A stretch of 24,443 bases of DNA from a virus. Positions within the stretch are counted from its first letter, which is position 1. Each line of letters opens with the position of its first letter. A model generated the notes under the pieces. The model was not told where the DNA came from. It ran no database searches and saw only the letters and a list, made by a program, of their open reading frames with translations. The stretch is taken from the UHGV virus genome UHGV-0098506. One strand, given 5' to 3'. Shown one piece after another: positions 3,290 to 9,509 of the stretch. Both the position numbers and the translations under genes were made by a program.

Positions 3290-3930
3290 TCTCGCCATCC
3301 TTCACAGTTGTAATCACTACAGCCTTCAAAATCATATGGGCTGTACTGCCAGGAGATTTTTCCGCAATGCGGACAATTCCAACGCACCTTCCCGCTTCGC
3401 GACTTCTTTCTTCTGTTCTGCTCTTTCAACCAGTCAGGCATGACCAAACCTGCGCCCTGAACCATTGTTCTGCGGTTAAAGTTATTGATATTGAACGTCC
3501 TGCGCTTTGCTGCATCAGCAATGGAAAATGGCAACCAAACTATTCCTGGTTCGTTTTTGTTGGCGACGCTAAAGATGGTCGCTTTACTGAAGTCATCTGT
3601 TGGCAATCCACCGTGTTGAAGCCAGTAAACATCGTTGCCGTTCCAGCTACCTTTTTTGTAGGCCACATACGCAGTGCAATCTGACTCAATCAGGCTTTCT
3701 GTAGGGATGTACTGGCAATCAACGTGCCACACTGCCATTGCATCCACGCTATCAGCGCAAACAGGCTGATCGATATCTCGCCCACAATTCCAGGCTTTTT
3801 GGGCTTCTTCCAGCGTGTAAACATGAGCGCGATCGATATCAGAACTGTAACCATTGCCGTTATGGCAATGGAATGAAGCGTTATTGCCCACAGTTTCACG
3901 CGAGCACATCATGTAAAAACGGTTAGTCAC
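3286..3930 (-). CDS. Hypothetical Cys/His-rich protein (214 aa) with C-terminal CxxC...C..C zinc-ribbon-like motif
   Basis: GTG start at 3930 preceded by AAGGAGG at optimal spacing. Sequence ends NCPHCGKISWQYSPYDFEGCSDYNCEGW. No known family recognised. Confidence 0.55.
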   Translation of the reverse strand: MTNRFYMMCSRETVGNNASFHCHNGNGYSSDIDRAHVYTLEEAQKAWNCGRDIDQPVCADSVDAMAVWHVDCQYIPTESLIESDCTAYVAYKKGSWNGNDVYWLQHGGLPTDDFSKATIFSVANKNEPGIVWLPFSIADAAKRRTFNINNFNRRTMVQGAGLVMPDWLKEQNRRKKSRSGKVRWNCPHCGKISWQYSPYDFEGCSDYNCEGWRE

Positions 3931-3947
3931 TGGCTGCCTCCTTTGCG

Positions 3948-4112
3948 CTACATCGCATTCAGATATTTGTTGTCATTAACAGAGCTGAAACTATTTCTCT
4001 TAAGCAATTCCTCTCTCGATGGCATTGGCTTTACGCGTTGGCGAATAATCATTTCTGCCGGAAGAATGCCGGGATTGTATGCAAGTCCTCTCATGGTAAA
4101 TTCCTCAGTCAT
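3948..4112 (-). CDS. Small hypothetical protein (~54 aa, [26 protein letters not shown]...)
   Basis: ATG at 4112 overlaps the stop of the upstream ORF (ATGACTGA); a second in-frame ATG at 4094 is preceded by GAGGAA. The ORF-track start at 4244 gives a longer version that overlaps the upstream gene. Confidence 0.3.
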
Positions 4113-6846: not shown

Positions 6847-7146
6847 TCAAATAAGTGGTTTGCTGCCTAATTTCATTTTTTGGCGACCAACACAAGTCAC
6901 ACCCATTTCACTGCGTGGCTTGCGGTAGTAAATACGATTCTGTTTATGCTCGACTTCTTCTGCCTTCTTGCAGCGAAGGCTTCCGAGTGATGCTGCTTTA
7001 TCTGCTCTGACGCAACCAGAGAGCTTTAGCGCAATCTTTCGCGCCAGTCGCTGCTCTTGCATTGCCTGTTCACGTTGAGCCTGTCTGCGTGCTCTGCGGC
7101 GATTTCTGGCGTTATCGTCAGCCAGATATGTAATGACTACTGTCAT
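6847..7146 (-). CDS. N: Antitermination protein N (lambda-N family)
   Basis: From the internal ATG (MTVVITYLADDNARNRRRARRQAQREQ...) there is an arginine-rich motif at the N-terminus. C-terminus RIYYRKPRSEMGVTCVGRQKMKLGSKPLI parallels the lambda N C-terminus. GGAGG Shine-Dalgarno before ATG at 7146. Confidence 0.8.
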   Translation of the reverse strand: MTVVITYLADDNARNRRRARRQAQREQAMQEQRLARKIALKLSGCVRADKAASLGSLRCKKAEEVEHKQNRIYYRKPRSEMGVTCVGRQKMKLGSKPLI

Positions 7147-7159
7147 GTTGACCTCCGAT

Positions 7160-7230
7160 GAAACAACTTTGGAATTGATAGTGATTGCAAAGTTGTTTCT
7201 GGCCCCTCGAATTGAGGGGCAGAAAGAGCA
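7160..7230 (-). promoter_or_regulatory. Structured N leader: 12-bp-stem hairpin adjacent to the N Shine-Dalgarno plus a second boxA/boxB-like element
   Basis: Minus strand reads TGCTCTTT-CT-GCCCCTC-AATTC-GAGGGGC, then GAAACAACTTTG-(16 nt)-CAAAGTTGTTTC, then ATCGGAGGTCAAC-ATG. This resembles the RNase III-sensitive leader hairpin of lambda N. Confidence 0.4.
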
Positions 7231-7457
7231 TCTCGCCACCTAATAGTTCGATGCTCGGATCGATAGATTTAATTAACCTCGGTTTTGAAGTTATGCATTC
7301 ACATAAATCCTCCTGTTGCATGTGCAGCATTGGCTGTGTTTGGCGGCTGCATTTCGCCTATGGAATTGACTTTGGCGGTGACGCGCCGGGTGCTTATCTT
7401 CCGGTTGCCGTCGTGCAGCTGCACTTCACGTCACCCCAAAGCCAACTACTCTTTGGT

Positions 7458-7498
7458 TCCCGCATTTCGGCGGGACAATCCCATCAATGTTAAAGAGC
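7458..7498 (-). promoter_or_regulatory. nutL (boxA GCTCTTTAACA plus boxB hairpin TCCCGCCGAAATGCGGGA on the leftward transcript)
   Basis: The same boxA-spacer-boxB arrangement occurs on the plus strand at 9129-9172 between cro and cII. Paired identical copies in the pL and pR leaders define the nut sites. Confidence 0.65.
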
Positions 7499-7544
7499 CT
7501 GCCAATCTGTTCCGTTTGGCTACCAGCGTCCTGCTGATGGCTAA

Positions 7545-7629
7545 AGAATACTGTAGGTATTTTATTGTGTAAATACCCAAGGTATTTATTTTTGGTGAAA
7601 TAATGATAAGCAAATGAATACAAAGGATA
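7545..7629 (-). promoter_or_regulatory. OL/pL: three 13-bp operators (ATAC-N5-GTAT family) overlapping a leftward promoter (-35 TTTACA, 17-bp spacer, -10 TATTCT)
   Basis: Operator-like sites at 7548-7560, 7573-7585 and 7617-7629 share ATAC...GTAT half-sites with those in OR. Promoter hexamers on the minus strand at 7568-7573 and 7545-7550. Confidence 0.55.
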
Positions 7630-7718
7630 TTTATTTTTTTCGGTGTCTGCTTGTTCAGTGCTTTTTATGCGGGATATGTGAAGTGGATCCCGATAGCTAT
7701 TGCTGCCGGGATTATAGG

Positions 7719-8087
7719 TTAGTCAGCGAAGGTTAAGACGAGAATTACCTTAATGATGTCTGCTACAACAGACACGGCCATAGATAAACCAAAGACGATC
7801 CAAGCCACAGTGATGTCTTCACTACCATCGTATAGAGTTCCGTAATCACTGGTGTAAGGCGTAAATGTCGCGCCTTGATACAATAGGTATAAGCTTGATC
7901 CATAGAGGATAAATGCAGATATCCCTTGTATTGCTATGATCACAAGAATCATGAAACGAGCTGATCTATGCGCCCAAGCCTGGCTTATTTTTTCTGATAG
8001 AGATTTCGCAATAAAAGCATGCGCTAAGCCGTAAATTGTCGAGATTGCCAACATCCCAAAAAAGCTTGCTATAGCGGTTCCAACCAT
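7719..8087 (-). CDS. Small multi-pass membrane protein (~122 aa) behind cI on the same strand; function unknown (candidate exclusion/abortive-infection protein)
   Basis: Starts 17 nt after the cI stop with AAGGGG 6 nt before ATG at 8087; the ORF-track start at 8108 is a TTG overlapping the cI stop. Three to four hydrophobic segments (AIASFFGMLAISTIYGLAHAFI, FMILVIIAIQGISAFILYG, VAWIVFGLSMAVSVVADIIKVILVL). Confidence 0.6.
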   Translation of the reverse strand: MVGTAIASFFGMLAISTIYGLAHAFIAKSLSEKISQAWAHRSARFMILVIIAIQGISAFILYGSSLYLLYQGATFTPYTSDYGTLYDGSEDITVAWIVFGLSMAVSVVADIIKVILVLTFAD

Positions 8088-8104
8088 AAGCGCCCCTTGC
8101 GTGA

Positions 8105-8821
8105 TCAAACCAGCCTTAGTTTTGTCTCAATTGCAACGCCTATAATCTTGCAGTTTCCATTGATTGGCACGAGAGGCCATGCAGGATTAAGTCCCTTGAG
8201 GTATTTATTTCCGCCGTCGATTATCAGCTTCTTGAATGTTGCTTCGTTAGAGTCAGAAAGTTTTGCTATGACCAAGCTGCCGTTGATCGCCTCCCTTCCG
8301 GTATCGAAAAGAACGAATGTTCCCTCTGGAATGCTTAACCCAACCGGTGCCGTCATTGAATCACCTTCCACTTTAAGCCAAAACGCATTACCTTGAATAT
8401 GCGCGTCAGACTCAAGCCAAACATCTATGTCTTTAATGGTGTATGGTTCGCATGCTTCACACCACGAGCCAGCCTGGATACTGCTTAACACCGGATACCT
8501 CTTTCCTGCTCTGTATTCCCCTGCATACCTTACGTTGGCATCGCTCTTAAGGCTTTCTGCCTGTTCTGCAACCTTGGCAGCAATTGACTGGCTAAAATCA
8601 GCAATTGAGACTTGCAACAATCGTGCAAAACCAGATGCAACCTCAACGTTTAGCGCGTTTCTGCCATTAAGATAATGGCCTACCGCTCCTTGGGTGATAC
8701 CCAGTTCATCAGCGATTGAGTATTGGGTTATTCCCAATTCTTTCTTTTTTGACTCATACAAAGCCTTAAGCCGCTTAGCGTCTTCCAGCTGTTCTGTCGT
8801 CAGTGATTTTTTATTTTCCAT
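8105..8821 (-). CDS. cI: CI-type prophage repressor (N-terminal HTH, C-terminal S24 LexA-like autopeptidase domain)
   Basis: N-terminal HTH (ELGITQYSIADELGITQGAVGHYLNG). Candidate Ala-Gly cleavage site followed by S24 motifs (GDSM...GTFVLFD...KKL). Divergent from cro across an operator region. Confidence 0.9.
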   Translation of the reverse strand: MENKKSLTTEQLEDAKRLKALYESKKKELGITQYSIADELGITQGAVGHYLNGRNALNVEVASGFARLLQVSIADFSQSIAAKVAEQAESLKSDANVRYAGEYRAGKRYPVLSSIQAGSWCEACEPYTIKDIDVWLESDAHIQGNAFWLKVEGDSMTAPVGLSIPEGTFVLFDTGREAINGSLVIAKLSDSNEATFKKLIIDGGNKYLKGLNPAWPLVPINGNCKIIGVAIETKLRLV

Positions 8822-8833
8822 AGCTTAATTCTA

Positions 8834-8898
8834 ATAGCTAAGGTACTTAAACTAAAAATACCCTGAGTATTGATTGCTTTGAATACCTGTAGTATTCT
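8834..8898. promoter_or_regulatory. OR region: three operator-like 13-mers with pR (-35 TTGATT, 17 bp, -10 TATTCT) and a divergent pRM candidate (TAGAAT 7 nt upstream of the cI ATG)
   Basis: Sites ATAGCTAAGGTAC (8834-8846), ATACCCTGAGTAT (8858-8870) and ATACCTGTAGTAT (8883-8895). pR hexamers at 8870-8875 and 8893-8898. Confidence 0.55.
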
Positions 8899-8927
8899 TT
8901 GTTCATGGTTAATAACGGAGAGTGCTT

Positions 8928-9122
8928 ATGATTCGAATGACACTTGCCGATTACGCCAAAATCCATGGACAGGCTAAAGCAGCCAGTGACTTTGGTGTAA
9001 TCCAGTGCGCTATCAGCAAGGCCATTCTGGCAGGCCGTAACATCATGGTTACGGTAAAGCCTGATGGCAGTGTGATTGGAGAGGAAGTTCGTCCTTTCCC
9101 AAGCAACAAGAAAAACAAATAG
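8928..9122 (+). CDS. cro: Cro repressor
   Basis: [62 protein letters not shown] parallels lambda Cro along its whole length. GGAG 8 nt upstream of ATG at 8928; the ORF-track start at 8922 is a GTG. Confidence 0.85.
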
Positions 9123-9128
9123 TAACAC

Positions 9129-9172
9129 CGCTCTTTAACAGTCATGGTCCTCATTCCCGCCGAAATGCGGGA
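9129..9172 (+). promoter_or_regulatory. nutR (boxA CGCTCTTTAACA plus boxB hairpin TCCCGCCGAAATGCGGGA)
   Basis: Consensus boxA 7 nt after the cro stop. boxB is identical to the nutL copy. A further hairpin GCGCAT-AAGTTG-ATGCGC follows at 9178-9195. Confidence 0.65.
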
Positions 9173-9230
9173 ATACAACGCGCATAAGTTGATGCGCATA
9201 ACTTATTATTTGTTAAGGAAATACTTACAT

Positions 9231-9509
9231 ATGGAACTTACAAGTACTCGCAAGAAAGCGAATGCAATTACAAGCAACATCCTGAATCGAATTGCTGTAC
9301 GTGGTCAGCGAAAGGTTGCTGATGCATTAGGGATCAATGAATCGCAAATTTCGCGATGGAAAGACAGCTTTATCCCAAAGATGGCCATGCTTCTGGCTGT
9401 TCTTGAATGGGGTGTTGAAGACGAGGAGTTGGCTGAACTGGCTAAGAAAGTAGCCAGAATGCTGACAAAAGAAAAAGCCCCGAAGAACGGCGAATTCTTC
9501 GAGGCCTGA
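9231..9509 (+). CDS. cII: CII transcriptional activator
   Basis: From the internal ATG: ...GINESQISRWKDSFIPKMAMLLAVLEWGV... matches the lambda CII core (SQISRWK...IPKFSMLLAVLEWGV). The ORF-track start at 9144 would run through nutR. Confidence 0.85.
   Translation: MELTSTRKKANAITSNILNRIAVRGQRKVADALGINESQISRWKDSFIPKMAMLLAVLEWGVEDEELAELAKKVARMLTKEKAPKNGEFFEA

Follow-up and report, generated by a model that had tools for sequence, protein, structure and literature searches.

The region described here is very probably the immunity switch (CI/Cro) of a lambdoid prophage with the immunity module of phage HK620. It lies in a 24,443-nt stretch of viral DNA (UHGV-0098506), all of which is referred to below as the window, and across 1.9 kb (positions 7400-9300) it shares 99.0-99.2% nucleotide identity with HK620 (AF335538), HK630, mEpX2 and others. 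A sequence-only reading of this DNA had proposed that its operators define the immunity group of the prophage. The operator type is indeed a distinct one, but comparison of the motif and the repressor with known immunity groups leads to HK620, and the group has already been named immHK620 and annotated in AF335538; judged by its sequence, the immunity region is of this type, known since 2001. As to what sets the module apart from that of lambda, we somewhat favour the reading that it has a third left operator at a recurrent distance of 45 bp from OL2 and that it is a natural two-bp variant of lambda specificity with matched changes in CI and Cro.

The same module is present in HK630, HK140, mEpX2, HF4s, phi296/phi367 and several Stx2c phages, and the same region is found in 146 of 5426 complete E. 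coli genomes (~2.7%). At the protein level, the N-terminal domain of cI is 98.9% identical to that of HK620 and 100% identical to those of mEpX2, HK140 and HF4s. In alignments of the window with HK620 and mEpX2 every base of OL1, OL2, the 7616-7632 site, OR1, OR2 and OR3 is invariant; the three promoters of HK620 are identical to those of the window, and the handful of substitutions all lie outside the operators. HK620 has about 43% of the window in common, the rest of the prophage being a different mosaic. The AF335538 record annotates OL1-3, OR1-3, pL, pR, pRE and the nut sites, and its OL1, OL2, OR1-3, pL and pR fall on the positions given here; HK620 itself was reportedly the subject of a 2001 article by Clark, Inwood, Cloutier and Dhillon (J Mol Biol 311:657). 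The published plating data are for mEpX2 against other groups: this phage is reported to differ in immunity group from lambda, HK022 and phi80 and from four further mEp phages, and lambda/HK022/mEpX2 triple lysogens have been constructed (PMC3442831, the one source for heteroimmunity to HK022). Membership in the HK620 group predicts which superinfecting phages would be excluded, including some Stx2c-converting phages with the same module.

The divergent repressor and cro genes flank a tripartite OR, in which OR1 and OR2 overlap pR while OR3 overlaps pRM (Table 1). The cI product gives an ungapped alignment with the N-terminal domain of the lambda repressor (1LMB, E 4e-24), has the recognition helix TQGAVGHYLNG and contains the features of autocleavage in its translation, namely an Ala-Gly site (IQAGSW), a serine (GDSMTAP) and a lysine (TFKKL). 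Among PDB entries the best matches of Cro are lambda Cro structures, again in an ungapped alignment (E 5e-19). Downstream of cI and in the same orientation lies hkaS, for which a Pfam search returned no match.

Table 1. Features of the immunity region in window coordinates, with operator scores on the 17-bp matrix
Feature	Position	Strand	Sequence or elements	Remarks
pL	7545-7573	-	-35 TTTACA (7573-7568), 17-bp spacer, -10 TATTCT (7550-7545)	From promoter scan
OL1	7546-7562		GAATACTGTAGGTATTT	Exact 13-mer core (7548-7560); 18.5 bits; OL1 in AF335538; overlaps pL -10
OL2	7571-7587		AAATACCCAAGGTATTT	Exact core (7573-7585); 20.0 bits; annotated in AF335538; overlaps pL -35
Probable OL3	7616-7632		GAATACAAAGGATATTT	13-mer ATACAAAGGATAT (7618-7630), 1 mismatch; 11.0 bits, sixth in window; inside HK620 'tIMM'
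hkaS	7719-8087	-		Small hydrophobic protein; ORF list, AF335538 annotation
Extra exact 13-mer	7878-7890			Inside hkaS ORF; missed in the sequence-only reading
cI repressor	8105-8821	-		HTH_3 N-terminal domain (PF01381), Peptidase_S24 C-terminal domain (PF00717)
pRM candidate	8828-8856	-	-10 TAGAAT (8833-8828), 17-bp spacer, weak -35 TTTAGT (8856-8851)	
OR3	8832-8848		TAATAGCTAAGGTACTT	13-mer ATAGCTAAGGTAC (8834-8846), 2 core mismatches; 15.2 bits; OR3 in AF335538; overlaps pRM -10
OR2	8856-8872		AAATACCCTGAGTATTG	Exact core (8858-8870); 17.9 bits; annotated in AF335538
pR	8870-8898	+	-35 TTGATT (8870-8875), 17-bp spacer, -10 TATTCT (8893-8898)	Read from sequence
OR1	8881-8897		GAATACCTGTAGTATTC	Exact core (8883-8895); 17.2 bits; annotated in AF335538; overlaps pR -10
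cro	8928-9122	+		Lambda Cro family (PF09048, E 3.6e-26)

The operators had been recognized as three 13-bp sites of the ATAC-N5-GTAT type in each of OL and OR. Four exact 13-mers and imperfect third sites at 8832-8848 and 7616-7632 bear out a tripartite OR and make a tripartite OL probable; the 13-bp description is exact for those four, and the informative unit is the 17-mer TAATACC-N3-GGTATTA rather than the 13-mer. Exact 13-mers are enriched about 24-fold in the 24-kb window (five, where 0.21 would be expected), and none of 100 shuffled sequences contained as many as five. On a position weight matrix for the 17-bp operator, trained on four other phages only, the six switch sites are the top six of the whole window. 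The centres of OL1 and OL2 are 25 bp apart, those of OR3, OR2 and OR1 lie at -19, -43 and -68 relative to the cI ATG, and the last 3 bp of OR2 double as the first three of the pR -35. The fifth exact 13-mer, at 7878-7890, was considered as an extra conserved operator and rejected, as the conserved flanks are missing from its 17-mer, whose score is 5.9 bits; it is probably a chance match, or a weak site at best, and the loci compared contained no diverged hkaS homologue with which to compare it.

Conservation was assessed over 36 distinct loci, comprising the window, four phages and 31 genomes that represent about 20 genera. In the 35 relatives, from other genera of Enterobacterales, the N-terminal domain of cI is 60-84% identical to that of the window, and the recognition helix is kept with minor substitutions. 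Sites of at least 12 bits are found at OR1 in all 36 loci, at OR2 in 32 and at OR3 in 30, their centres lying near -68, -43 and -19 relative to the cI start codon, while the central triplets of the operators are variable (29 distinct) and the spacers have diverged too. On the left side, the OL1-OL2 spacing is 24-25 bp in 26 of 26 distinct loci with an OL pair, and the OL2-OL3 spacing seems to fall into three discrete classes (21, 29-30 and 45 bp) among about 20 related prophages. A possible co-variation of a Gly45-to-Ser change (in phage Fostie and in locus L037) with AGTAC half-sites was dropped, because three other loci (L020, L034 and L035) keep Gly45 and yet have deviant OR2 sites.

Within the putatively tripartite OL that overlaps pL, OL1 and OL2 are clear and the third site is weak, lying far from OL2 (45 bp between centres) and overlapping a feature that GenBank calls a terminator (tIMM). 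It is conceivable, if unlikely, that OL has two working operators only and that a cI-hkaS transcript ends at the palindrome at 7616-7632, which would then be the tIMM terminator and no repressor site. AF335538 labels the positions corresponding to 7606-7636 as tIMM; one half of the palindrome is degenerate (ATAT); its 11.0 bits, taken alone, do not exceed the maxima expected by chance in 24 kb (mean maximum 10.4 +/- 2.2 bits in simulated sequences with the same dinucleotide make-up); and a third OL site of at least 10 bits is absent in several relatives (L018, L024, L028, L030, L034 and L035). However, the minus-strand RNA at 7616-7632 folds no better than shuffled sequences (-3.9 kcal/mol, z 0.04), a terminator scan returned nothing at that position, and a score of at least 9 bits would arise by chance in the 100 bp next to OL2 with a probability of about 0.006. 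In eight loci, moreover, a site lies at exactly 45 bp from OL2 (10.8-15.4 bits in the seven others, in which the sequence between the sites has diverged), with the AATAC and GTATT halves kept and the centre and the OL2-OL3 spacer diverged, a pattern that we regard as the trace of a protein-binding site and not of a hairpin.

Both pL and pR coincide with the AF335538 annotation and, as had been claimed from the sequence, have the same -10, TATTCT, which OL1 and OR1 respectively overlap (by 3 bp when the proximal 13-mer is considered). The outer ends of these two hexamers are also the limits, 7545-8898, that the sequence-only reading gave for the region. The generic promoter scan required 9 of 12 consensus positions; pR, with 8, falls short of this, as does pRM, whose -35 has 3 of 6 consensus positions. 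The TAGAAT hexamer of pRM adjoins OR3, and 6 nt (TAAGCT) separate it from the cI ATG, so that the A at 8821 is the seventh nucleotide after the hexamer, just where the start codon had been placed. We predict from this arrangement that the A of the ATG is the +1 of pRM and that the transcript is leaderless, as in lambda. Since cI mRNA made from pRE, which is annotated at about 9215-9254, has a long leader anyway, only the pRM transcript of the lysogen bears on this prediction.

Alternatively, cI might not be leaderless in the lysogen, the TAGAAT being coincidental and pRM starting further upstream, or translation of cI beginning at another codon, although we consider this quite improbable. The -35 is poor; footprints, EMSA and 5'-end mapping for the HK620 immunity type were sought in the searchable full-text literature and none was found; and in four Morganella relatives the hexamer is only 3 nt from the predicted ATG, which indicates that the geometry is not universal. 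Against this, a TAnnAT hexamer adjoins OR3 in 34 of the 36 loci, and the lambda-like gap between hexamer and ATG is 5-7 nt in 32 of them (6 nt in 24). The TAAGCT that precedes the ATG is without a Shine-Dalgarno sequence, the N-terminal arm of cI aligns residue for residue with that of lambda CI, the geometry equals that of lambda pRM, and in P22 the annotated pRM 5' end is just 4 nt from the c2 start.

We place OL3 at 7616-7632, while the HK620 GenBank record puts it at 7593-7609, at a distance of 22 bp from OL2. Lambda has 20 bp between OL2 and OL3, and eight relatives have an OL3 at 21 bp from OL2, so the GenBank position is plausible in itself, but it is highly improbable as the true OL3, for 7593-7609 (TGGTGAAATAATGATAA) scores -22.4 bits, is not helped by a one-base shift of register and differs at one base (G/A) between the window and HK620, in contrast to the clear 12-19-bit sites of the relatives with the 21-bp spacing. 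The GenBank OL3 and tIMM are probably a mis-annotation, copied from the HK620 record.

These features can be combined into a model of the switch. The repressor, a lambda CI homologue, would bind as a dimer to the 17-bp TAATACC-N3-GGTATTA operators; OR1 and OR2 lie over the -10 and -35 of pR, as OL1 and OL2 do over those of pL, so that both early operons would be kept shut in the lysogen. OR2 adjoins the weak -35 of pRM, with its centre at nearly the same distance from the ATG as in lambda. In lambda CI, Asp38 is part of the positive-control patch. The repressor described here keeps this residue, which suggests that it probably activates its own, predicted leaderless, pRM transcript. OR3, at its lambda-like position over the -10 of pRM, would turn off cI expression once repressor is abundant or Cro is bound, and the third and weaker site in OL, at 45 bp from OL2, may be available for long-range cooperation between OL and OR. 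The Peptidase_S24 domain would make the switch SOS-inducible. As to specificity, the Ser-Gly...Ala of lambda CI at residues 45, 46 and 49 is replaced by Gly-Ala...His in the repressor, and Cro differs from its lambda counterpart at residues 28 and 31, changes that may match the altered half-site positions 3 and 4; this putative assignment of residues to base pairs is by analogy with the lambda co-crystal structures.

The result has little significance beyond annotation, and it makes no open question newly testable. From the comparative set comes a 17-bp model of the operators of the family that is well supported, and an immHK620-like type is widespread, occurring in about 20 genera of Enterobacterales. 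If the proposed specificity relationship is true, this immunity type could serve as a convenient natural system for the co-evolution of repressor, Cro and operator specificity.

Besides HK620, lambda is among the closest known systems. Its CI is homologous (53% identity in the N-terminal domain, ungapped), as is its Cro, and 17-bp operators and an S24 autocleavage domain are found in both. The lambda OR3, OR2 and OR1 are centred at -19, -42 and -66, compared with -19, -43 and -68 in the window, corresponding to spacings of 24 and 23 bp against 25 and 24 bp; lambda OR2 likewise overlaps the pR -35 by 3 bp (TTG), and lambda pRM, read as CAT, 6 nt and AATCTA, has the same 6-nt gap. The differences lie in the recognition helix (QSGVGALFNG in lambda, QGAVGHYLNG in the window), in the half-site (TATCACC against TAATACC, which differ at positions 3 and 4 and have positions 1, 2, 5, 6 and 7 in common), in OL3, 20 bp from OL2 in lambda and 45 bp in the window, and in hkaS, which replaces rexA and rexB. 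The claim that the operator type is unlike those of lambda and P22 stands, the annotated operators of both phages scoring at most 5.3 bits on the matrix. Lambda operators, of the TATCACCGC half-site type, range from -7.0 to +5.3 bits; by half-site and recognition helix the module does not belong to the lambda immunity group (imm lambda).

P22 has a tripartite OR and OL between divergent repressor and cro, as the window probably does, and its nearly leaderless pRM resembles the predicted leaderless one of the window. Its operators are unrelated (ATTTAAG...CTTAAAT type), the DNA-binding domain of its repressor is distantly related, and no site in the P22 OR and OL intervals reached 4.4 bits, the fourth-best score of the scanned region; membership in the P22 immunity (immC) is likewise not indicated by the sequence. 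The 434 operators are of the ACAA-N6-TTGT type, and it is on this textbook knowledge that their difference from those of the window rests. The putative operators of the Salmonella phage epsilon34 (WTACRAWWTGTAT; Villafane et al. 2008, PMC2629481) have the same 13-bp ATAC-N5-GTAT core, and its recognition helix is similar (TKGAVSHWLNGRR compared with TQGAVGHYLNGRN), but the flanks differ, so that none of its sites exceeds 5.7 bits on the 17-bp matrix. The N-terminal domain of the epsilon34 repressor is short and has no N-terminal arm, the epsilon34 Cro is of the HTH_3 type and not of the lambda Cro family, and only two sites are annotated in each of the epsilon34 operators.

Divergent early promoters, one at each end, bound this interval of a lambdoid prophage; four genes, assigned from the ORF map and Pfam, are listed with the other features in the table. 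The sequence-only reading had ascribed immunity specificity to it, and that interpretation was right, but sequence comparison matched the interval to an already annotated object: 7400-9300 is 99.0-99.2% identical to the coliphage HK620 immunity region (AF335538). Equally close are HK630, HK140, mEpX2, HZ41, HF4s, phi296/phi367 and two Stx2c-converting phages, and at least 80% of the region is present in 146 of 5426 complete E. coli genomes. The HK620 record gives pL, OL1, OL2, OL3, tIMM, cI, OR3, OR2, OR1 and pR as well as cro, nutL, nutR, pRE and a cII binding site. Its OL1, OL2, OR1, OR2 and OR3 17-mers centre exactly on the window's 13-mers when a 1-bp indel at 7634 is allowed for, and all operator bases are invariant in an alignment of the window, HK620 and mEpX2. 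Elsewhere the window differs from HK620 in its mosaic make-up and carries P22-like morphogenesis genes, about 43-51% of its length being common to any one phage, so that, judged by sequence, this is a prophage with the HK620 immunity module and distinct from HK620 itself. A search of the accessible literature found no binding or transcript-mapping reports for this immunity type, and the HK620 operator annotation appears to have been made by sequence inspection. Our additions, all three modest, are a cross-genus operator model for the HK620-type family, a half-site that is a two-position variant of that of lambda with matched changes in repressor and Cro, and a probable correction of the OL3 and tIMM annotation.

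Features of the immunity interval in window coordinates
Feature	Position	Strand	Remarks
N-like ORF	6847-7239	minus	
pL	7573-7545	minus	TTTACA-17-TATTCT (promoter scan)
Exact 13-mers at pL	7548, 7573		
GenBank OL3	7593-7609		AF335538 7888-7904
GenBank tIMM	7606-7636		AF335538 7901-7931
OL3, predicted	7616-7632		GAATACAAAGGATATTT; 13-mer 7618-7630, ATACAAAGGATAT
hkaS	7719-8087	minus	small hydrophobic ORF downstream of cI
13-mer within hkaS	7878-7890		17-mer 7876-7892
Repressor cI	8105-8821	minus	HTH_3 and Peptidase_S24 domains (ORF map, Pfam)
OR3 core	8834-8846		ATAGCTAAGGTAC
Exact 13-mers at pR	8858, 8883		
pR	8870-8898		TTGATT-17-TATTCT, read from sequence
Cro, lambda family	8928-9122	plus	PF09048
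cII	9231-9509		ORF map and Pfam

To the left, the N-like ORF has an arginine-rich N-terminus (NARNRRRARRQAQREQ) and a C-terminal part that we take to resemble the N proteins of phage 21 and H-19B. The layout of the ORFs between nutL and N differs from the HK620 record, and a mosaic junction may therefore sit just left of the immunity region.

Exact ATAC-N5-GTAT 13-mers number five in the 24.4-kb window against 0.21 expected, a count reached in 0 of 100 shuffles. Four are the sites claimed at pL and pR; a 13-mer with one mismatch adjoins OL2, and the OR3 core has two mismatches. Both promoters have TATTCT as their -10 hexamer, which in each case shares 3 bp with the proximal 13-mer; TAGAAT-TAAGCT-ATG on the minus strand makes the A of the cI start codon the seventh nucleotide after a -10-like hexamer. 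Every particular of the earlier observation was thereby confirmed. Reading the sequence before the cI ATG revealed no Shine-Dalgarno sequence.

Searching by tblastn with the repressor N-terminal domain retrieved four phages from other genera (Hafnia phage Pocitis76, Serratia phage OS31, Erwinia phage Eho49 and Escherichia phage Fostie; 68-84% identity), and a 17-bp position weight matrix was built from these alone, leaving the window out. The six best sites in the window were OL2 (20.0 bits), OL1 (18.5), OR2 (17.9), OR1 (17.2), OR3 (15.2) and 7616-7632 (11.0), compared with a mean maximum of 10.4 +/- 2.2 bits in Markov-simulated 24-kb sequences. The fifth exact 13-mer, which the sequence-only reading did not mention, lies within hkaS (codons ~66-70), between OL and OR. 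At 5.9 bits, and with the conserved A2A3/T15T16 flanks missing from its 17-mer, it is probably due to chance, a weak internal site being the lesser possibility.

Surveying one genome per species yielded 33 prophage loci from some 20 Enterobacterales genera (60-84% identity), and the recognition helix [ST]QGAVGHYLNGRN is kept in the relative loci with minor substitutions. Sites of at least 12 bits occur at OR1 in 36, at OR2 in 32 and at OR3 in 30 of 36 distinct loci, centred at about -68, -43 and -19 from the cI ATG; the central triplets vary (29 distinct among 84 sites), as do the inter-operator spacers. Together these amount to a clear phylogenetic footprint. Its informative unit, the 17-mer TAATACY-N3-RGTATTA, is conserved at 79-100% in positions 2-6 and has the 13-mer as its core. 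Within ~140 bp upstream of cI, the Morganella prophages L029, L031, L032 and L036 keep OR1, OR2 and only the left half of OR3, and only 3 nt separate their -10-like hexamer from the predicted ATG, which points to either an OR with two operators or another start for cI.

The GenBank OL3, which carries a G/A difference between window and HK620, shows no operator similarity, scoring -22 bits in any nearby register. OL1 and OL2 are spaced 24-25 bp apart in all 26 distinct relatives with a clear pair, and the distance of the third site from OL2 falls into discrete classes of 21 bp (8 loci), 29-30 bp (4) and 45 bp (8). Members of the last class include the window and OS31, together with prophages in Serratia, Pantoea, Tatumella, Kluyvera and Phytobacter; they retain both halves, AATAC and GTATT, while centre and spacer diverge. 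In the window this site, the best candidate, lies within the annotated tIMM. A terminator-only role, which that annotation would imply, is the less likely rival: the minus-strand RNA of tIMM folds no better than shuffles (-3.9 kcal/mol, z 0.04), and a terminator scan there found nothing. Given the score of the GenBank OL3, the conserved 45-bp site and a tIMM without a hairpin, we place the predicted OL3 at 7616-7632 with moderate confidence, and the HK620 GenBank OL3 and tIMM look misassigned.

All eight loci of the 45-bp class (window 7560-7640 and the OL regions of relatives L004, L009, L012, L014, L015, L038 and L039) carry TATTTATTTT next to the distal site on its cI side, and seven of them carry TATTTATTTTT there. 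In most, OL1 and OL2 are also followed by a TTATT-type tract; such sequences could reflect duplication of OL2 with its flank, or else an A/T tract lying upstream of pL. The Pocitis76 record annotates a tRNA-Gly (3923-4002) between OL and the N gene, the expected place of nutL.

The claim that the operators are unlike those of lambda and P22 also held: on the HK620-type matrix the lambda operators reach between -7.0 and +5.3 bits, and the P22 OR and OL intervals contain no site reaching 4.4 bits, the fourth-best score in the scanned 4.5-kb stretch. The 434 operators, ACAA-N6-TTGT, are likewise unlike ATAC-N5-GTAT. The N-terminal domain of the mEpX2 repressor is identical to that of the window, and mEpX2 is reported to differ in immunity group from lambda, HK022, phi80 and four further mEp phages, with lambda/HK022/mEpX2 triple lysogens having been made (PMC3442831). 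In Salmonella phage epsilon34 (EU570103 30838-32831) the putative operators (WTACRAWWTGTAT; PMC2629481) share the 13-mer core and the recognition helix (TKGAVSHWLNGRR) is similar, whereas the operator flanks differ (at most 5.7 bits) and repressor and Cro are of other lineages, the repressor having a short N-terminal domain and the Cro being unrelated.

The geometry parallels that of lambda: relative to the cI ATG, the centres of OR3, OR2 and OR1 lie at -19, -42 and -66 in lambda and at -19, -43 and -68 in the window; in both, the last three bases of OR2 (TTG) overlap the pR -35, and 6 nt separate the pRM -10 (TAGATT in lambda, TAGAAT here) from the ATG. A TAnnAT hexamer abuts OR3 in 34 of the 36 loci, 6 nt from the ATG in 24 and 5-7 nt in 32, and the annotated P22 pRM 5' end is 4 nt from the c2 start. 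Geometry and conservation together thus lend good support to the predicted leaderless cI transcript. Asp38, part of the positive-control patch in lambda, is retained, which fits OR2-dependent activation of pRM.

Alignment to the lambda counterparts is gap-free for both the repressor N-terminal domain (1LMB, E 4e-24) and Cro (E 5e-19), and the half-site, TAATACC in the HK620-type family and TATCACC as the consensus of annotated lambda operators, differs at positions 3 and 4 only. In lambda co-crystals Gln44 reads base pair 2, Ser45 base pair 4, and Asn55 and Lys4 base pair 6. Gln33, Gln44, Asn52, Asn55 and Lys4 are the same in the window's repressor, whereas Ser45-Gly46 and Ala49 are replaced by Gly-Ala and His, and Ser28 and Asn31 of Cro by Cys and Ser. 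By analogy with these contacts, the residue changes would fall where the operator changes.
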